A stretch of DNA of 64,000 nt from Mobula hypostoma. Taxonomy: Eukaryota. The position numbers and the translations under genes are program-made. Below, in pieces: positions 7,300 to 61,735 of the stretch (position 1 is the first letter of the stretch; the number at the start of each line of letters is the position of its first letter). A model generated the notes under the pieces. It was not told where the DNA came from. It made no database searches and saw only the letters and a program-made list of their open reading frames with translations. The stretch covers positions 106,704,001 through 106,768,000 of the forward strand of contig NC_086107.1 in the NCBI RefSeq assembly GCF_963921235.1, in the 5' to 3' direction.

Positions 7300-7962
7300 C
7301 GCAGCGTGCGTGGCCACTTCGGTGATGATGTCTGTTATCTGTCAAGTAGGGGACCGTTCACAATTCTGATTTGATGGGAGATGGACGTGAGAGCACGGAG
7401 GAACATCTGGAAAACTTCTGAAATGCCCGCTTCTCTGCCGCTGCTACTGTGTGGTAACCGGAATCTCCAGAGCAGAAAGCCCCGAAATCCTCGGCTTTGC
7501 GTGTTTCAGCGGCTGGGGAGAGGTTGAAGGCGCTCGGCAGAGGATGGCACTCGGGAGGCTGTATCGGAGGGGCTGGTCGGAAGCTCGAAGTTTTCGGACG
7601 GATGGATTCAGTGTCGGCTGTGGTCGGCTGCTCCCAAGGTATCGGCAAGTTGACGGTGCCTGGAGGTTTATGGCAGGGAGTTTCTCCCTTTTGCTGCCTG
7701 CTATCGGGGACTCGGGAGTCGATTGACTCGGGGACTTTGAGACTTTTTTTTACCGTGCCCATGGTCTGTTCTTCATCAAATTATGGTATTGCTTTGCACT
7801 ACTGTAACTATATGTTATAATTATGTGGTTCTGTCAGTGTTAGTCTTTGGTTTGTCTTGTTTTCTGTGATATCACTCCGGAAAAACACTGTATCATTTCC
7901 TAGTGCATGTATGCATTTCTAAATGACAATAAAAAGAGGACTGAGTGTTCTCATAATCTAAA
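7300..7962 (+). mobile_element. Second copy of the 4512-5197 family, inverted
   Basis: Reverse-complement similarity over its length; shared ORF start MGTVKKSLKVP on opposite strands. Confidence 0.75.
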
Positions 7963-13579: not shown

Positions 13580-14185
13580 ACACACACAAGATGCTGGGGG
13601 AACTCAGCAGGTCAGGCAGCATCTATGGAAATAAATAATTAGTCAATGTTTCAGGCCAAGACCCTACATCAGGAATGGAAAGGAAGGGGAAAGATGTCAG
13701 AATAACAAGGTGGGGAGAGGGGAAGGAGGATAGCTAGTAGGTGATAGGTGAAGCCAGGTGGGTGGGAGCAGTAAAAGTCTGAAGAAGAAGGAATCTGATA
13801 GGATAGGAGGATGAACCATAGGAGAAAGGGAAGAAGGACGGTCATCGGGGTCGGGGTATGGGGTAGAGGTGATAGGCAAGTGAGGAGACGAAGTAAGAGG
13901 CCACGTGGGGAATGAAAGAAGAGGAGAAATCGATGTTCTTGCCATCAGGTTGGAGGCGACCCTGATAGAATATGAGGTGTTGCTCCTTCAACCTGAGAGT
14001 GACCTCATCATGGTAGAAGAGAAGGCCATAGACCAATATGTCAGAACGGGAATCGGGATAGGAATTAAAATGTTTGGCCACCAGGAAATTTGGTCTTTAC
14101 CAACCTTCACCTGAAATGTCAGCTGTCCCCTTCCTTCAGCGGATGCTGTCCGATCCTCCAGAGTTCCTACAGCACCTTCTGTGTA
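13580..14185 (-). mobile_element. Penelope-like element 3' fragment (GIY-YIG endonuclease C-terminus plus terminal repeat)
   Basis: ORF HFNS...LRLKEQHLIFYQGRLQPDGKNIDF; decayed hammerhead motif near 13640-13678. Confidence 0.7.
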
Positions 14186-26869: not shown

Positions 26870-27325
26870 GGCACCTCTGGTGAAAGGACGTGTCCATTCT
26901 GGGGTAGCTCACTCACCTTTGGTCCCCACCGGCCACTGAGCTCTCACTTGTGGCTCCAAAGTGACTGTTTGCATGCAACAACAGTCATTTCAACAGGTGG
27001 GCTAAACTAGGTGAGGGTCGCCAGCGGCCTCATACCCTAGTGAGATAGGGACATGCCTGTACTAGCATATAAATTCAGCTCCAGTGGGCTGGGCAGCTGA
27101 GGTCAACGGTACAATCTCGCGGCCGGGAAGGCGGTTCTGCAACACTTCCTGGAGAGTGACGATCATAACAAGCCACAGAAGTCACCGTCATCCACTGCAG
27201 CAAGGAAGACCCCAGCTGTGATGACTTTGTTCCACTTTACCTGCACTTCCAAGGTTGACAGAGTGGAGCTGCCCCAATGTTCCGGCTTTTCCGTTCTAAA
27301 AAAACTTCTCTTTGTGCAGATCAAT
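26870..27325 (+). mobile_element. Older, degraded relative of the 35839-36402 RTE-like element
   Basis: Shares GCACCTCTGGTG, CACCTTTGGTCCCCACC, GCTCTCAC, TTTGCATGC, GGCTAAAC and AGGTGAGGGT. Confidence 0.7.
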
Positions 27326-29994
27326 CAATTATTAAAACTCTGGGAAAGGACAAAGGTAACATTATTCAACAGAGAGTCGTAGAGTAATCGTGCAGAAACA
27401 GGCCCTTCGGCCAACTCGACAATGCTGACCTGATGGTGTTCCTTTTGGCCCATGTCCTTCTGAACCTTTTGTCTCCATGTATCTGCCCAAATGTCTTTAA
27501 AACGGAATTTCTTTTCATATAGTGTGTTGTGCTGTGAACGGCACTGTGTGAAAAAGCAATGGAGGCAGATTCAGTTATTTAAAAGGCTCAGAATAAAAGA
27601 AATTCGGGCTCTGTTGACTGAGCAAAGTAGGGTACGAAGGGTTAAATGGTTTCCTTCGCTGCAGTACCCTTCTTTGATTAAAATGAGATTCCATTCTGCT
27701 GCATCCGGAAAGGTTGGTTAAATGTGAAACACCTACTTGTTTTAACAATTCGGTTTAGGCTGTGCACGGCTGAAGACATTAAAAACAACACCACCTCCTC
27801 CAGTCTCGGAAGGTTTGCTGACCTAATCCTGCGGATTGACGTTTTAGCGCCTTATTAAATGACCTGCGAATGAAAGGATTGCCTCCGCTTTTATGACTGG
27901 CTTACCCAGTCGTGATGTTTCTAAAGAGCAGCGCTGTCAATCTCGGGCGCTTCTTCCCGGGAATCTTTCTCACTGGTAAAATATCACTACTCTGCGCGTG
28001 ACCGCCGAAAAAAACTGCACGTTTGTGGGCGCAGCTCAGCACATCACAGGAACCAGCCTGTCCTCTACGGACTCCGTCTATATTTCTGGCTGCTTCAGTA
28101 AAGCAGCCAGCGTAATTGAAGATCCCGTTTGTGCCAGACATCCTCTATTCTGTCTCCCATTGGGCAAAGATAACAAAAACCTGAAAACACGGACCAGCAA
28201 GCTCAAGGATGACTTCCATCCCACTGTTTTCGGACTCTTGACCACACCCCTTGTACGACAAGATGGACTTTCAACATCAAAATACCTCACTGTGATCTTG
28301 CATTTTATCGTTAACCTGCACCGCACTTTTTCAGTAGCTTTTACATTTTATTCTGCATTGTCCCCCTCAGCGCACTATGTAATGATTTGATCTGTATGAA
28401 CGACAAGCTTTTCACTGTATCTTGATACATACAGCAGTATATTTTTCCTAAACTAATCGTAAGCAATCAGATACCCGGTTTTAGGATATTGATCAAAATT
28501 CAAAGATTCAAAGTCCAGTTATTATCAACGTGTGCATGCAGTATAAAACCCTGAGATTTGTCTTCCCGCGGACAGCCATGAAACAAAGAAAGCCATGGAA
28601 TTTGTTCAAAGAATAACATCAAACCCACTGCTGTCTGTAAGGATTGTGTATGTCCTCCCTGTGACTGAGTGGGTTTCCTCTGGGTGCTCTGGTTTTCTCC
28701 CACAGTCCTTGATTAATTCGGAGGTTGTCGGGTGGCGAGGCTCAAAGGGCTGGAAGGGCCTGTTCCACGCTGTATCCCAATAAATAAATAAACCCCTGCC
28801 CCCCAAAAAAAGCATAACAGGTAAGAAAAAAAGGTTGAAAACACGGAATATAAAACACAAAACCAAAAGGGTCAGTTCAGCTCAGTTTTAGTTCATTCTA
28901 GCGCTGTGTCGTTTGTTATCCAGGCCGCCCTGATCGAAATCTCCCAAAATAACAACAAGGTAAAAAGATTAGTTTGGCGTATTGGGGGTGTCGATGGAGG
29001 GAGAGATGCTTGTGTCCTAGGCTAGGAATGATGCATACTCTGTTGCAGTTCCACAGTCACTGACAGAGATGCTGCCAGGTGTCTGGGTCTTAGTTCACGC
29101 ATAGTCGGCAGGTCGCTGGAGGAATGAAAGGAGAGCCGGTTGTTGCAGATAATTTCAGGTTTGGGCAAAAATGTGATATGGGGTGCGGAAGCAACCTTTC
29201 CCTGTTGGTGAGTATACCCATAAGTATTGATCCCCATCCCAGGGTCATGGGATGCAGAGTCCCAAAGAAGGTAGTCACGTCTAATGGCTGACTCTCTAAA
29301 GCAGGGGTTCCCAAATGGTTTTATGCCATAGACCAATACCATTAATCAAAGGGTTGTGGAGCCCAGGCTGGGAATCCCTTCCCTGTAGGCTGAAATCTCC
29401 CTACTTGCCCAGAGCGAAGCTTTACGCAAACATCAAGGCTGCTGAATAATTTCTTGTCAGCTTCTGAGATTGCCAGAGTGTGAGGTAACGGGCAAGGTGG
29501 GGTACGAGTCACCCTCTCTTGCATTTCCAGCATCCCTGCTTCAAAATAACAAGATATCAGCATGTTATCCTGCCTCTTACATGGTCACAATAACTTGTTG
29601 AGAAAGAATTTATTGAGTTGTTCCATACTACCAGGTTAAATGCTGGGTTAATGGCATAGATGAAGGGTCTGGACTGAAGATACGGACTGTCCATTTCCCT
29701 TCACCGATGTTGTATGGCCCTCCAGCATTTTGTTTGTCGCTGTGAATGCCCACATCCTGCAGTCCTGAGCCTCTCCAGTTAAATTAATCTGCCTGCTGTC
29801 ATAAAGACAGAAGTAGTGATCCCAAGTTTAAATCCCACTGCAGCGGCATGGCAATCTACATTTACTTAATTAAATAAATGGCGTTGCTGGCTCCCACTGT
29901 GGCTGGTTGATTAATTGTTGGTCAGCGTCCAGGGCTCTGGCACGATTTTGTTTTCAGCTTTGTTTTTACATTTTCTGCCTCCCTGTTCTTGTAG

Positions 29995-31376: not shown

Positions 31377-34300
31377 GTAAGGCAGTAACGAGACAAGAAG
31401 TTAGTTTCCCAGTGTTGGATTCTGGTAATTTTGCATTCAAAGATTCTTCAAAAGTCCAGAATGAGCATAAAATTTGTTGGTTATTTATTAACATTTATTA
31501 AAGTGTTATAAGATCAAAGAATGAAGAAAAACAACAAAAAAGTTGCAGTCATCGTATACAAAAAAATGCTCAAACTAGAGAGATATCAAGCCACCATAAT
31601 AACAAATAACCTATGAAATAATCACTAAAAAATAAACTTCTATAAAAGCTACCAAAACCACCAGTAAAGGATTAAACAAGCAGCAGATATCACCACTGGC
31701 AAACGTTGAGACTTCCACCACCTCCTGTGGGAAAAAAAACTAGGAAGCTTCTAGAAACATAGAGATAGTAGTTACTAAAAAAAAATACACTGAACGATTA
31801 CACGTATGTAGGTGATTACATAGATAATACAAGTAAGCATAGGAAAGTTAAATAATGAGAAGATAACGATTTTACACCCTAATGCAAAACCAAGGAAAGA
31901 TCTTGGAACTGATTGTGACAGAACCCAGCAGAGAGGATCAGCCCCAGCGATTGTCCAGTGCAAGCTCTTTTCCCCCTGTGCCAGAGAGCTAGTTCCTCAC
32001 AGAAGAATGCAAAGCAACTTCAGTTACACCTCAGACACGAGAAAGACTGTAGATGCTGGAAATCCAGAGCAACACACACACAAAATGTTGAATGAATTCA
32101 GCAGGTCAGGCAGCATCTATGGAAAAGAGTAAAAGTGGATGTTTTGGGCCGAGACCCCTCCCTAGGACTGAGAAGGAAGTGGAAGAGAAGCCATATCAAA
32201 AAGTTGTTGGGGGGGTAGAGGCTAGCTGGAAGGTGATATGTGAAGCCAGGTGAGTGGGAAAGTTGAAGAGCTGGAGGAAAAGAATCTGATAGGATGGGAG
32301 AGGAGACCACAGGAGAAAGGGAAGGGAAGAAGGAGGGGACCCGGGGGAAGTAATAGGCAGGTGAGAAGAAGTAAAAGATCAGAGTTGGGAATTGGGTGGG
32401 GGGTGAAATTCGGTGAAAGAAGATACTGCTATTTGTGCCATCAGGTTGGAGGTGCCACCAGGCAGTTCAAAATCTCTGATTTTCAGTTGGGTGTTTCATC
32501 CAGCTCTGCACCTGGGTGGGGATCTTAAGGAATGGGTGGCTTTTGTGAGTATTTGTGGGGTTGGGTGTGGAGTCATCACTCCGCTACTGAATGTGCTCTA
32601 GCTATTTTATGTTCTCTTACAATATTGACGGAGATTGCTCAGTCCACTGAATCAGTGCCAGCACTCAGAGCAGTCCCGTCAGTGCTATTCCCCACTGAGC
32701 TTTCTGTAACCTATACTGTCTCACATGTCACACACACAAAATGCTGGAGGAACTCAGCGGGTCAGGCAGCATCTATTGAAATGAATAAACAGTTGACATT
32801 TTGGGCCGAGACCCTTCTTCAGGACTGGAAGGGAAAGGGAAGGCTTCAGAATAATAAAGTGGGGGTGAGGGGAAGGAGGCTAGCTGGAAGGTGATGGGTG
32901 AAGCCAGGTGGGTGGGAAAGGTCAAGGGCTGGAGATGAAGGAATCTGATAAGAGGAGAATGGACCATAGGAGGGGACCTTACGGAAGGTGATTGGCAGGT
33001 AAGACGAGATACTAGGCCAGAGTGGGGAATAGAGGAAGGGAGTGGATTTTTTTAATATCAGAAGGAGCAATTGATAGTCACGCCATCAGTTTGGAGACTG
33101 CTATCCAGGTGTTGCTGCTCCATCCTGAGGCTGGCCTCACACACCCACCTACATTAGGGGAAATTTATGTAGCCAGTTAACCTTCCAACCTGTCTGTCAT
33201 TGGGATGTGGGACGAACCTGAAGCATCCAGAAGAAACCTAAATGGCCAAAGGGAGAACGTGCAAACTCCACATGGACAGCGCCGGAGTTCGGAATGGAAC
33301 CTTGGCTGCTCGAGTTGTGAGTCAGTGCTGCTGGGAAACAGCGCAACAACTGGAAGTCTGTCTGATCCTTCCTGCTTCCCCCTTCGTCCCTCAAAAAGCA
33401 CCAGGTGCAGAGACTAGTTGAAGCACTCAACTGCAAATCAAGGAAGAGACTTTGAGCTGTCTGGTTCTTGTCGCTCAATAGTGATGCCTGTCATTTGTAA
33501 AGCTTTAGTGCATGTCTCTTAAGAAGGGAGTGGAGCTTAGGGTAAGAGTTGAGGGGTGAGGTGAAATTACCCCAAGGCACAAAATCAAGTTGCTTTAAGG
33601 CCCTTCATTGGTTGGCGTTGACCATGGATGTTGCGTCCTAACTGTCCAGGGCAGTGTGATATGGAGAGCAAACTGTTGCCCATGCAGCAGGCTGCCCCTC
33701 CGTGCTGCTGACGAATCCAAAGCAACGGCAGAGACCAGTGCAGTTTGGCACCAGCAGCATCACAGGAGTCGCCAGTCAGCGTTGAACTCAACGTAGGACT
33801 GACTTTGGGGCTCCAGCTCCAAATTTCTTCCTCTGGGTTCACTCCTGAACCCTTCCCCATGAGTAGGCATAGCTGCAAGGCAGCAGAGGTTTGAAATCAG
33901 AGTTCTCCTCCTCGATGAGCCCCATCTGCTGGAAGCGACTGGTTTTAGGGTGCCAGTAACCCGCCTTTGTCTCTTCTCTAGGCAGTAGAAACAGTTCTGC
34001 TAGGCTCAGTTACTAAGCTCCCCCCCCCACCCCCGGATGACAACCTTAAGAAATCAAAGTTGTTTTCGTATGTTCACGTTACACATGATACCTGCCTTGG
34101 TCTGAGTACCAGTGAATGAGGGACAATACTATCGGTTAAGGGAGAGTGTCAGAGCATATGGTACGTTCCTAAAGAGAGTGTCCGAACTTGTATGTCTTCT
34201 CCTAACTTGGGGCATACTGGAAATCAAACCAAACGAAAACTCAAATCTAAAGTCATAGAGCACTATAGCACAGAAATGGGCCCTTCAGTCCATCTAGTCC

Positions 34301-34916: not shown

Positions 34917-35838
34917 GTAAGAAGGGTGGGCTTGGGAAGGGATTCTAACAAAATTTCCCACAGTCCAAAGGTGTACAGGTTAGCAGGTGAATTAGTCATT
35001 GTGAATTGTCCTTTAATTAGGCTTGGATCGGTGGGTGCTGGTTCCGTGGGCTGGAAGGTGGAGATCTCTAAATAGAAATACAGGTGCATTCAAAGATCTA
35101 AGGGAGCCAAGTTATGGAAGTGAGCAGAGATCTTGGTGATTCTCCTTGGAACAGAGGGAATAGCTCAGCTGGTGGAGTTGCTGCCTCACAGCTCCAGCAG
35201 CCCTGAGTTAAATCCTGTCTGTGTGGAGTTTGCATGCTCTCCCAGTGACTGTATTACTTTCCCTCAGGTGTACCAGTTTCCTCCCACACCCCAAAGATGC
35301 ACAGGTTGGTGGGTTTATTGTTCACTGCTGGTTGGCCCTAAGAGAGGGATTGAACTTAACAGGAACAAAATAAAAGGGGAGAGGGTTAATGCAGAATTAG
35401 TGTAGATGGCTGCTCAGTGGCCTGTAGAGACTTGATGGGCAGAAGGGCCTATTTCCATGCTAAGTGATCCTTCAAAATTCAAATTAACTTTTCTTGTCAA
35501 AGTACATACATAAAACCATATCCAATTTCTTATGGGCGCACTCAATAAATCTGTAGAATAAGAACCATAACTGAATCAATGAAAGCCCATCCAGCTAGGG
35601 CACTCAACCAGACAACAAACAAATACAAAAAAAAAGGGGAAAAAAATAAATAAGCAATAAATAACGAGAACATGAGGTGAAGAGCCCTTGAAAGTGAGTC
35701 CATAGGTTGTGGGTACATTTCAGTGATGGGGCAAGTGTAGTTATCCCCTTTGGTTCAAGAACCTGATAGTTGCAGGATAATGACTGTTCCTCAACCTGGT
35801 GGTGCAAGTCCTGAGGCTCCTGTACCATCGAACTGATG

Positions 35839-36402
35839 TGTGTGTTCGTCTATTGTCAATGTCGATGAGGACCTTGACACCATTTGATGGTGTCGAGACT
35901 AGCGCGTGATTTGGATTTAAGTGAGGGAGAGTTGCGCAGTGTCAGCCTCACTCTCTCTTCCCAATTCCCATCTGGATCCAGTGGCAAGACAGAGTCGAGA
36001 CGGCTGGAGATGGGACTGGGCGCAGTGGATGACCAGGACGTCTTCTGTGTCTTGCCCTGCTCTACACGTTCCACGATGCTCGCAGAGACTGCCTTCTTGA
36101 CCGTTGGACCTTCCATCGGTCTCGTCCGCTCAATCCCCCGGAGTCTGTCTTCACATGCTGGGATAGACAACTCCCTATCTCACCGAGGGTTTGAGACCCG
36201 TCGGCTACCCTCACCTGGTTTAGCCGGCTTGTCGAAGCCGTTGCCTGGGGTGTGGCCGCTGTCGCATGCAAACTGCTACAGGGAGCCACAGGTGAGAGCT
36301 GAGTGCCAGGTGGGGACCAAAGGTGGGACTAACTGCCTTGAAGAGGACATGACATGTTCCCCCACCAGAGGTGCTACCCCTCCCTGACACCCCATACACC
36401 CC
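35839..36402 (-). mobile_element. Non-autonomous RTE-like retroelement with a 5' HDV-like ribozyme fold
   Basis: Interrupts an L2-like fragment with a degenerate TSD (TACC..AACT(G/A)ATG). CpG-rich. Nested double-pseudoknot pairings at 36208-36402. Confidence 0.7.
36208..36393 (-). ncRNA. HDV-like ribozyme (predicted, probably carrying one P1.1 mutation)
   Basis: P1 GGGGTGT/ACACCCC; P2 CTCTCACCTG/CAGGTGAGGG; P3 GGC/GCC; L3 starting TCC; AGGCAAC; P4 CGGCTT-CGAC-AAGCCG; J4/2 GCTAA. Confidence 0.65.
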
Positions 36403-37186
36403 TACCTAACTAATGCAGCAGTGAGGGGAGAGCATAACCTGGGTGGTGGCGGTCCCTGATGATGGATGCTGCTTTCCTGCAACTGCATTTCATGTGGGTG
36501 TAGATCCTGATGTGAGAGCAGGTTTAATAAAGATGATCAAAGTCCCAGAGGTTTTTTTACATAGAACAAATGAGAAACAACTTCCAGCATTAGGAAGGTC
36601 AGTAATTAGGACACAGCTTGACAGTAATTGGCAAATGAACCAGAGGGGGTGTTTGGAACCTTCTGCTGTGAATTATTGTGATTTGAAATGTGTTGCCTGT
36701 GGAGGCAGATTCTATTCAATCATTGAGAAGGGAATTGGGTAAATGGTTCGAAGGAAAATAGTTTACAGGGATATGTGGAGTGATTGTGGGACCAGGTGGA
36801 ATAGGCTTCTCTTCCAGAGGGCCCCACATTATGCCCTGTGGTCGAATGATTTCTCCTGAAGGTATCATTCTGTGAAATAAGTGGTTCCTAAGAAGGGATG
36901 AGGATGTGCATGAGAATGATCCTGGGAATAAAAGAGTTAACATATGAGGAGCATTTGATGACTGTGGGCCTGTACTCCCTGGAGTTTAGAAGAATGTGTG
37001 GGGGGGTCTCATTGTAGCCTATCGAATATTGAAAGACATAGAGTGGACCTGGAGAGGATGTTTCCTATAGTGAGGGACTCCAGGACCAGAGGGCACAGCT
37101 GCAGGATACAAGAACATCTCTTTAGAACAGAGATGAGGATGCAGGTCCACGGGTTCAACGCAGAGTCCAGGTCAGCAGTTCTTCTG

Positions 37187-37545
37187 CAGTACCAAGGGAT
37201 CGCCACCTTCAGAGGGGCAGTACCGAGGGATCGCCAGCTTCAGAGGGGCAGTACCGAGGGATCGCCACCTTCAGAGGGGCAGTACCGAGGGATCGCCAGC
37301 TTCAGAGGGGCAGTACCGAGGGATCGCCACCTTCAGAGGGGCAGTACCGAGGGATCGCCACCTTCAGAGGGGCAGTACCGAGGGATCGCCGCCTTCAGAG
37401 GGGCAGTACCGAGGGATGGCCGCCTTCAGAGGGGCAGTACCGAGGGATCGCCAGCTTCAGAGGGGCAGTACCGAGGGATCGCCACCTTCAGAGGGGCAGT
37501 ACCGAGGGATCGCCACCTTCAGAGGGGCAGTACCGGAGGACTGCT
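37187..37545. repeat. 31-bp minisatellite, 11 near-identical copies plus a degenerate end
   Basis: Unit CAGTACCGAGGGATCGCCA(C/G)CTTCAGAGGGG starting at 37187, 37218, 37249 ... 37528. Confidence 0.95.
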
Positions 37546-37825
37546 GCCTTCGGGTTGGGGGGGCGGGGTTGCAGTACTGAGGGATTCTAGCTTCTTGCTA
37601 TTACTTACCTTCCTTAAAGCTCCCCTAATCTGCATTAAGCTACCGACGGTAATACAGCACAGAAACAGACCCTTCAACACGCACCCCGCCCCCCCCCCCC
37701 CCACAAGGTGCCTGACTGAGCCAGTCCCAATTGGCCATGTTAGGCTTGTATATCCCCCGAACTGTCCTGTCCATGTACTCCTGAATGAACCTGCCTCAAC
37801 TATATCCTCTGGCGGCTCGTTTGAA

Positions 37826-60722: not shown

Positions 60723-60919
60723 CAGTGATAAATTTCCAAGTCACAATGTGTGAGACTTGGACAAGAACCCACAGGTGGACAATACTGGTTTGAGAGATGG
60801 TATTGGAAGTAGCCTAGACAAGTAACTGATCACAGAAAGGGGATGAGAGTATAGGATGATGGATTAGGTACAAATCAAGTAGATTACTTTGTTCAAAATG
60901 AGGTCAGACCCCTTCAGAG

Positions 60920-61735
60920 CAAAACACAAAATGCTGGAGGAACTCAAGTCAGGCAGCATCTATGGAGATGAATAAACAGTTGACGTTTTGAGCTGAGACC
61001 CTTCTTCAAGGCTGAAAAGTAAGGGGGAAGATGATGGAATAAAAAGGTTGGGGGGAGAGGAAGGAGGCTAGCCGGGAGGTGATAGATGAAGCCAGGTGGG
61101 AGGAAAAGGTCAAGGCTGGAGAAGAAGGAATCTGATCGGAGAGGAGAGTGGACCATGGGAGAAAGGGAAAGGCAAGGGGGAGATGATAGGTAGGTGAGAA
61201 GAAGAGGGGGTAAGAGATGGCTAGACTTGCTTTAACTCTAAGGCAGGATAAGGGAGAAAGGGAAGGAGGAAGGGACCCAGGGGGAAGTAATAGTCAAACA
61301 ACAGGAATTCTGCAGATGCTGGAAATTCAAGCAACACACATACAAGTTGCTGGTGAACGCAGCAGGCCAGGCAGCATCTCTAGGAAGAGGTGCAGTCGAT
61401 GTTTCAGGCCGAGACCCTTCATCAGGACTAACTGAAGGAAGAGTGAGTGAGGGATTTGAAAGTTGGAGGGGGAGATCCAAAATGATAGGAGAAGACAGGA
61501 GGGGGAGGGATGGAGCCAAGAGCTGGACAGGTGATAGGCAAAAGGGATACGAGAGGATCATGGGACAGGAGGTCCGGGAAGAAAGATGGGGGGGGGACCC
61601 AGAGGATGGGCAAGGGGTATATTCAGAGGGACAGAGGTAATAGTCAGGCAGGATGAGGTAAAAGGTCAGAGTGGGGAATAGAGGAAGGGGGATTTTTTTT
61701 AACCAGCAGACATCGACATTCATGCCATCTCCAGA
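60920..61735 (-). mobile_element. Penelope-like fragment with a younger Penelope-like copy nested at ~61296-61636
   Basis: Duplication GTAATAGTC (61287-61295, 61637-61645). Hammerhead motif at 61394-61429 on the minus strand. Confidence 0.75.

Follow-up and report, generated by a model that had tools for sequence, protein, structure and literature searches.

A probable HDV-like ribozyme with a hairpin inserted at loop 3 heads a retroposon family of Mobula hypostoma

The element described here is a short retroposon on the minus strand of a 64,000-nt stretch of the Mobula hypostoma genome (assembly GCF_963921235.1, contig NC_086107.1, positions 106,704,001 to 106,768,000; this whole stretch is called the window, and positions are counted from its first letter), and the 5' 195 nt of the family to which it belongs probably encode a self-cleaving ribozyme of the hepatitis delta virus (HDV) type, as judged by comparison of its copies. 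The same 5' region is found in four families of the genome, namely the short interspersed nuclear element (SINE)-like family of the window copy, a long interspersed nuclear element (LINE), and two further families, here called family 3 and family 4. The HDV-like anatomy is present in the window copy, the core is conserved across the families, the helices at its periphery covary, and the copies have sharp 5' ends. With less confidence, and as a tentative proposal only, we suggest that the region represents an active subclass of HDV-like ribozymes with an extra helix (P3.1) at the junction of loop 3 and P3' of the catalytic core, which would be common to the LINE, the derived high-copy families and relatives in at least four other organisms, and which would be invisible to the Rfam models and to descriptors that demand a short loop 3 (L3).

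Results

Anatomy of the predicted ribozyme

All segments of an HDV-type fold that a preliminary description of this DNA had named are present on the minus strand, on which all segment positions are read in the window copy (Table 1), and all proposed pairs are standard ones (P1 7/7, P2 10/10, P3 3/3, P4 6/6). They follow each other in the complete order P1-J1/2-P2-P3-L3-P3'-P1'-P1.1-J1.1/4-P4-J4/2-P2', in which P stands for paired and J for joining segments and which makes up a nested double pseudoknot, and the comparison with related copies supports this order of helices. Loop 3 has the signature residues, with U at position 1, CC at positions 2-3 as a strand of P1.1, and G at position 6, and in J4/2 the CTAA at 36223-36220 is followed by two more bases and then by P2'. 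The cleavage point predicted from this arrangement lies immediately 5' of the G at 36402. J1/2 gives a closed stem-loop when folded, in the SINE-like family as well as in the LINE. The centroid fold obtained with a near-majority copy has J1/2, P2, and P4 formed and leaves bases 1-10 and the P3-L3-P1' region unpaired.

Relative to the majority of 59 copies, the window copy has C>T at 36280 (loop-3 position 5), T>A at 36274 in the stem of the loop-3 hairpin, and G>A at 36246, which breaks one P1.1 pair, and its J1/2 shows CpG decay and a 1-nt insertion. With three mutations in the core, it is evidently an old, dead and decayed insertion, a fossil of the family. The AGGCAAC after P1' had been interpreted as the product of CpG decay of GGGCAAC, and the family majority does read GGGCAAC, the motif that HDV carries in J1.1/4 of its genomic and antigenomic ribozymes.

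The family was also found in contigs of four runs (X2, X13, X14, and X17) from four other organisms; the label of these data as RNA is a guess, and all 24 runs considered consist of Logan contigs, in which starts of molecules are not visible. A G at 36246, and thereby GGGCAAC, is present in most contigs of X2, X14, and X17 and in about a third of those of X13, and T at 36274 (T>A on the + strand) is the majority in all four runs, so that the majorities in the other organisms indicate that the window copy is mutated at both sites. Loose ends of X13 have a P1' that ends in U, giving a G.U pair at the cleavage site, and a G-C pair of P4 that is changed to C-G, and a loose end of X14 (2 contigs) after P1.1 could not be parsed as P4 or J4/2. 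In X2, 10 contigs have loose ends at 36402 with dissimilar continuations, which points to the same 5' boundary. The contigs of X17 leave about 36072-36197 uncovered, and this gap was not used as evidence.

Copies begin at the predicted cleavage site

The first GGGGTGT is the start of 30/30 best-scoring copies, a set that is biased to full-length copies, and their upstream flanks are unrelated; the first bases are intact in 25 of them, and one or two bases are changed in the other 5. When SINE-like copies were picked solely by an intact P4-J4/2 pattern, 22 of 29 reached position 1-6 (20 of 27 independent ones, as two pairs among the 22 share flanks), and the remaining 7 were truncated at the scattered positions 10, 14, 27, 31, 34, 113, and 158. 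When 59 copies were searched for exact matches, target-site duplications (TSDs) of at least 8 nt were directly adjacent to the first G in 10 of them and separated from it by 1-3 nt in 8. Because the copy starts and the TSDs are found there, the copied RNA had its start at the G of position 36402 or no more than a few bases from it, and the earlier claim that the 5' end of the element coincides with the G of the predicted cleavage site is supported.

It was believed that the P1 strand is the GGGGTGT at 36393-36387, and this assignment had to be revised. Since most copies start at the first of the two units, and since the LINE has only one GGGGTGT unit where the SINE-like family has two, P1 appears better placed at the first GGGGTGT (36402-36396). 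In folds of the SINE-like family, the second GGGGTGT is paired with a family-specific 3' segment inside J1/2, which would leave the first unit free for P1. The second unit may serve as an occasional alternative P1, and three copies (L055, L094, and L098) start with it.

Loop 3 and its inserted hairpin

The 28 nt between the two strands of P3 are best read as a loop 3 of 8 nt, the length it has in HDV, followed by a putative 19-nt hairpin of 5 bp and one G. The preliminary description had placed a possible hairpin around GCATGC in an L3 of 28 nt; a hairpin is indeed kept in all four families, and in our reading it has a GCTGT/ACAGC stem and GCATGC in its loop. Inspection by eye of the majority sequence revealed no alternative P3 that would yield a short loop 3. 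The loops of the hairpin have 9 or 7 nt, and its top pair is U-A, U.G, or C-G. In the LINE, loop 3 starts with TCCTCG, which we take to be the same as in HDV.

Of the five pairs of the hairpin, the top pair is the only one that varies. In X17 it is C-G, with position 36272 changed in 33.4 of 36.9 depth and position 36262 in 609.6 of 609.6. Within the genome of M. hypostoma, the two-by-two count of this pair is 3,902 for T/A, 258 for T/G, 112 for C/A, and 17 for C/G. About 7 of the 17 C/G doubles look like the main family, compared to roughly 2 expected, and the T/G class is mostly a separate family; as covariation, these doubles are suggestive at best.

The core is conserved, and the peripheral helices covary

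Between the first base of P2 and the last one of P2', the SINE-like and LINE majorities differ at 2 positions, and they differ at 32 columns in J1/2; between the families in general, 13-32 columns of J1/2 are different. No fixed difference among the four families exists in P2 (20 nt), P3 (6 nt), and P1', nor in the U, CC, and G of loop 3, the GG of P1.1, and the C and A residues of J4/2. The majorities of all four families have the CC/GG of P1.1, including the GG that the window copy has lost, and a loop 3 that starts with TCCnnG; all 7 pairs of P1 are of the Watson-Crick type in the window copy as well as in the SINE-like, family-3, and family-4 majorities, and the J4/2 C is invariant in 65/65 and 46/46 aligned copies. 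Variation between families is found at the N of C-N-R-A (T or C, with CCAA in family 3), at loop-3 positions 4-5 (CC, TC, or AA), in J1.1/4 (GCAA, TAAA, or TACA), and at 6-7 positions of P4. This distribution of fixed and variable positions is what would be expected of an HDV-like core. P4 and J1.1/4 are likewise described as variable in passages of PMC3774820.

Covariation was analyzed with an alignment of 46 copies (17 SINE-like, 17 LINE, and 12 family-3 copies). Paired cells amounted to 93.9%, compared to 89.5% in shuffled alignments (0/500 as high) and at most 50.7% when slid, and the covariation score was 0.175, compared to 0.101 shuffled and at most 0.070 slid. A set of related sequences can score above its shuffles even if it has no structure; because of this confounding of the shuffle test, compensatory events were counted at the level of families, at which at least 11 compensatory pair changes were found. 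In P4, where 97.5% of the cells are paired, G-C alternates with C-G, C-G is replaced by U-A in 12/12 family-3 copies, and the third pair is U-A, U.G, or C-G. In J1/2, helix Hc has three compensated pairs in 16/17 LINE copies and a fourth in 12/12 family-4 copies, and helix Hd has several compensatory pair changes. A G-C pair of the hairpin directly downstream of the ribozyme is A-U in 15/17 LINE copies. Covariation in P1 to P4 and in the loop-3 hairpin, proposed as a check, is thus found in P4, and also in the J1/2 helices; P1 to P3 are invariant. Fixed U.G pairs are found at pair 2 of P2, in P4, and in Hd, which indicates that the structure lies on the sense strand of the element.

The layout is beyond chance expectation

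A loose descriptor of HDV-like folds was applied to the window, which demanded a P1 of 7 bp, a P3 of 3 bp, a loop 3 of 6-30 nt whose second and third bases are CC, a J1/2 of up to 130 nt, GG after P1', C-N-R-A before P2', and a P2 of at least 6 bp. In the whole window, it recovers the site, and each of the two GGGGTGT units is accepted as P1. Dinucleotide-shuffled versions of the window (n=40) gave 0.225 loci per window at this loose setting, and a P2 of at least 9 bp occurred in 0/40 of them; at its own P2 length of 10-11 bp, the HDV-like layout at the site is beyond chance. The descriptor had one other match in the window, on the + strand near 7437-7570, which is minimal, with a P2 of 6 bp and a loop 3 of 16 nt; as a second ribozyme it was rejected, since such a rate equals the chance expectation from the shuffles.

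It could be argued that the resemblance arose by chance, that it has no function at the RNA level, and that the conservation reflects the youth of the copies, which within a family diverge by only 4-8%, and the number of loci that the loose descriptor finds in shuffled windows would agree with this. However, J1/2 differs between families at the many columns given above, with the core unchanged, the compensatory pair changes are seen at family level, and the shuffles contain no P2 of comparable length. We consider a chance resemblance very improbable.

A LINE-dependent retroposon and its relatives

The window copy belongs to a 566-nt retroposon, as deduced from a BLAST comparison of 30 + 30 genomic copies, whose homology spans 36402 to about 35840 and which end with ...GACGAACA followed by short repeats, for example (CAA)n, (CCAA)n, or (CA)n. 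TSDs of 8-12 bp surround copies of the family; the window copy has no clean TSD. A search of the 3.48-Gb genome gave 2,318 first-look candidates, 40 of which were scored and found to be 95-97% identical. The P4-J4/2 pattern occurs 1,828 times in the genome, compared to 6 times for a reversed control, and the loop-3-hairpin pattern 3,902 times, compared to 0 for its control, and the family thus comprises at least 1,800 to 3,900 copies.

The element contains no long open reading frame (ORF), ARAGORN found no tRNA in 35700-36600, and Rfam gave no match to tRNA, 5S, 7SL, or snRNA, even at E up to 10. These features characterize it as a non-autonomous retroposon that depends on a LINE and has no recognizable RNA polymerase III (Pol III) head. 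Short length, high copy number, lack of coding capacity, TSDs, and a LINE-type tail are also the attributes of an ordinary Pol III SINE, in which the 5' end would be the Pol III start and the HDV-like drawing a coincidence. But the searches just mentioned did not detect any Pol III-type gene, the descriptor match exceeds chance, and a protein-coding LINE of 4 kb begins with this 5' region too, which is unlike a Pol III head; we therefore attach hardly any weight to this explanation. Toward the tail, the family majority has a hairpin with an 11-bp stem, which is likely to be the recognition element of the reverse transcriptase.

The LINE was recognized at the pattern-picked locus L060/L061, where the first 250 nt are 82% identical to the element and are then followed by different sequence. 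L061 is about 4 kb long, has an endonuclease-like and reverse-transcriptase ORF with broken frames, and ends with a (CCA)n tail. The reverse transcriptase is supported by an RVT_1 match (E = 1.7e-29), and the Exo_endo_phos_2 match is weak (E = 8e-4, below its cut-off); a search for the reverse transcriptase clade of L061 in the protein Atlas yielded generic reverse transcriptase clusters only. The LINE-specific 5' untranslated region (UTR) gave 810 first-look candidates, of which the 5' ends of 20 were retrieved. The 3' 300 nt of the element have no BLAST similarity to L061, the one full LINE copy examined. The element had been described as RTE-like; it is itself a non-autonomous derivative, and what stands of the proposal is that a LINE shares its 5' region.

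Several individual loci deserve mention. In family 3 (L082-L093), P4 is fully re-paired (CCGTCT/AGACGG), loop 3 reads TCCAAGTA, and the hairpin loop has 7 nt. The window contains a family-4 copy at about 26870-27400 (+), which is older, decayed, 5'-truncated, and internally deleted. This copy has a J1/2 of its own, and about 25 nt that span P3', P1', P1.1, and the 5' strand of P4 are missing from it; relatives at other places of the genome share 77-83% identity with it. In L058 (G000:C1:36571381-36574406), the first 150 nt are inverted beside positions 150-564, an arrangement of the twin-priming type. In L034 (G000:C1:2868999-2872024, minus strand), a SINE-like copy ends at position 272 and is followed by another LINE with an endonuclease-type ORF (392 aa open), and this locus represents a nested insertion or, alternatively, a chimera.

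Table 1. Coordinates of the retroposon and of the predicted ribozyme segments in the window
Feature	Position	Strand	Remarks
Non-autonomous retroposon copy, 566 nt	35837..36402	-	5' end 36402; 3' end ...GACGAACA + (CA)n tail
P1 5' strand GGGGTGT (preferred)	36402-36396	-	7/7 pairs with 36253-36247
Second GGGGTGT unit	36393-36387	-	sequestered in J1/2 basal stem according to minimum free energy and centroid folds
J1/2 peripheral domain, closed stem-loop of about 97 nt	36299..36395	-	independent folding in SINE-like family and LINE
P2 5' strand CTCTCACCTG	36298-36289	-	10 standard pairs with 36208-36217, one of them U.G
P3 5' strand GGC	36287-36285	-	pairs with 36254-36256; invariant
Whole loop 3, 28 nt, starts TCC	36284-36257	-	
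Loop 3 proper, 8 nt (predicted)	36277..36284	-	TCCCTGTA in window; TCCCCGTA in family majority
Inserted hairpin at loop 3 / P3' junction (predicted)	36258..36276	-	majority GCTGT - 9-nt loop - ACAGC
Spacer G preceding P3'	36257	-	
P3 3' strand (P3') GCC	36256-36254	-	
P1 3' strand (P1') ACACCCC	36253-36247	-	
P1.1 3' strand	36245..36246	-	AG in window; GG in family majority
AGGCAAC after P1'	36246-36240	-	
P4 CGGCTT-CGAC-AAGCCG	36240-36225	-	6 bp, 4-nt loop
J4/2 GCTAAAC	36218..36224	-	candidate catalytic C at 36223, C-N-R-A context
P2 3' strand (P2') CAGGTGAGGG	36217-36208	-	
Hairpin directly downstream of ribozyme	36183..36204	-	one pair G-C in SINE-like family
3' hairpin before tail, 11-bp stem in family majority	35873..35897	-	from alignment of 3' ends

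Discussion

The association of HDV-like ribozymes with the 5' ends of non-LTR retrotransposons has been described by Ruminski et al. (2011) and Eickbush and Eickbush (2010), as cited in passages of PMC6765202 and PMC3774820, and passages of the former state that such ribozymes process the RNAs of RTE, baggins, R2, and L1Tc. The predicted ribozyme has much in common with these systems, as it sits precisely at the element's 5' end, has the order of a nested double pseudoknot, a long and structured J1/2, a P1 of 6-7 bp, the U, CC, and G of loop 3, the GG of P1.1, and C-N-R-A in J4/2, and presumably serves the release of the element from co-transcripts. It differs from them by the conserved 19-nt hairpin before P3', which gives a loop 3 of 28 nt in total, by its occurrence in thousands of copies in an animal genome of vertebrate-like size and CpG depletion, and by the fact that it escapes the Rfam models. 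The R2-derived SIDEs, as outlined in part of PMC3414825, and NARTc of L1Tc, as outlined in part of PMC3383444, are similar in that they are short and non-coding, have a 5' ribozyme region in common with an autonomous LINE, and are moved in trans; unlike these, the element has a 3' part without BLAST similarity to the one full LINE copy, and it is not site-specific. With regard to J1/2, passages of PMC4908430 report that structured J1/2 domains activate HDV-like ribozymes, and ribozymes of the drz-Agam-2 type with a P1.2 treated there have a stable J1/2 helix domain that closes the gap between P1 and P2, as seems to be the case here, where this domain covaries. In contrast to the drz-Agam-2 type, the domain has about 97 nt and several helices, and it sequesters a second copy of P1 in the SINE-like family. 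A ribozyme-headed LINE with non-autonomous derivatives is thus a known kind of system, and the conserved hairpin at the junction of loop 3 and P3' appears to be new. A keyword search of an open-access subset of the literature, which is no proof of absence, found no description of an HDV-like ribozyme with a loop-3 hairpin or of one that heads a vertebrate SINE.

How could such an element function? By analogy to RTE, baggins, and R2, the element, which has no recognizable promoter of its own, would be transcribed within longer host transcripts. The RNA could then fold into the nested double pseudoknot, with the J1/2 stem-loop pinching P1 and P2 together, and the J4/2 cytosine (36223 in the window copy), together with a Mg2+ held by the U/G pair of loop 3, would cut immediately 5' to the initial G of GGGGTGT. 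Passages of PMC3386971 describe U and G in this loop as a signature of the family that forms a trans G.U pair, followed by a bulged base that is the least conserved one. The freed RNA, starting with this G, would be copied to new sites by the reverse transcriptase of a LINE that recognizes the 3' hairpin and the tail. As the released RNA would start at the cleavage-site G, all full-length copies would be expected to begin at the same base. Cleavage itself, the co-transcription, and the tolerance of the inserted hairpin are inferences.

Several observations weigh against a cleaving ribozyme, and we have to consider them together. The first concerns the pseudoknot itself, as P1, P2, P3, and P1.1 never vary and hence receive no support from covariation; for these helices and for four of the five pairs of the loop-3 hairpin, the support consists of complementarity and invariance, and the invariance could come from recent common ancestry. 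P1 of the LINE has six pairs and a C.A mismatch at the seventh, which is the sole fixed difference that breaks a pair. In R2 ribozymes, according to passages of PMC3774820, J1/2 has 216-498 nt, P1 has 6-7 bp, and mismatches at its top are normal. The second concerns loop 3, which is situated in the active site. To our knowledge, loop 3 has 7-8 nt in every HDV-like ribozyme, and the 28 nt depart from this.

The third concerns folding energies and curated models. The thermodynamic z-score is weak for the window copy (-2.67) and not significant for a near-majority copy (-0.74), and folding-energy z-scores discriminate poorly for sequences as G+C-rich as this one. Rfam gave no match at gathering score in the window region, and its best match, to RF02682 (the HDV-like ribozyme of F. 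prausnitzii), scored 14.6 bits, compared to a cut-off of 44, with E = 6.1. Unlike a member of this family, the region lies far under the gathering threshold, and the 3' half alone, 36259-36213, is aligned, where the consensus reads CAGGCAACG...CGGCUAAG and the weak alignment spans CAGGCAACGG...CCGGCUAA. On 16 LINE 5' ends, there was no Rfam HDV match with E up to 10. That standard models would miss the motif had been anticipated in the preliminary description, and the Rfam scores agree with this.

The fourth concerns the 5' end, which could have been made sharp by an internal promoter instead of a ribozyme, and which carries a variable number of 9-nt GGGGTGYAT units, from 1 to 3, with partial units upstream in some copies. 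There are one or two units in LINE copies and two in the SINE-like family, sometimes with a third, partial unit upstream, and because of this variable number the 5' end is not perfectly uniform. Such variation was seen at the 5' junctions of L062-L081, L035/L036, and L050/L051. It could result from slippage of the reverse transcriptase at the RNA's 5' end, or from the use of alternative units as P1.

On these grounds one may regard the region as a conserved, structured 5' UTR that descends from an HDV-like fold or has converged on one but has ceased to cut, and whose 5' end is set by an internal promoter, either by an initiator at +1 as in jockey- and I-type LINEs or by a dual promoter/ribozyme as in L1Tc; in that case, the role of the structure would lie in translation, RNA stability, or protein binding. 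Invariant instead of covarying core helices, a 28-nt loop 3 in the active site, and the lack of recognition by Rfam would all fit this. There are also precedents, as the 5' segment of L1Tc is a promoter and a ribozyme at once according to passages of PMC3383444, and HDV-like ribozymes have been proposed to promote translation according to passages of PMC6765202. However, the residues of the catalytic signature (U/G of loop 3, CC/GG of P1.1, and C-N-R-A) are kept in four families, variation is limited to positions that are known to be free, and the 5' end is exactly at the base predicted by the fold. Furthermore, a promoter leaves the strand-specific U.G pairs and the compensation in P4 and J1/2 unexplained. 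We retain this rival as the main one because loop 3 has 28 nt and the helices of the pseudoknot show no covariation, but consider it unlikely, and a ribozyme that cuts at the first GGGGTGT remains the explanation we prefer.

A helix that is inserted beside the residues of loop 3 by which the catalytic metal is held, and that is conserved across several families and organisms, tests how rigid the HDV core is. If a subclass with P3.1 is indeed active, a helix stands in its active site at the place of the bulged nucleotide of HDV and is tolerated or used there, and many HDV-like ribozymes of animal retrotransposons have been missed by searches. Our data suggest that searches with descriptors or covariance models that fix a short L3 undercount the HDV-like family. 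The scale is considerable, as ribozyme-headed elements, including a short non-coding derivative, gave rise to thousands of copies in this large animal genome, and the four families with their compensation in P4 and J1/2 constitute a comparative set that is ready for the design of cleavage assays.

Other repeats in the window

The window, which has a CpG observed/expected ratio of 0.42, contains many other families of interspersed repeats, with copies for example at 13580-13803, 32074-32295, 32730-32953, and 60917-61141. A tandem array of at least 12 units of 31 nt that are up to 97% identical is found at 37093-37613, some 700 nt away from the element's 5' end, and this array lies within open frames of the + strand that encode a repeated peptide.

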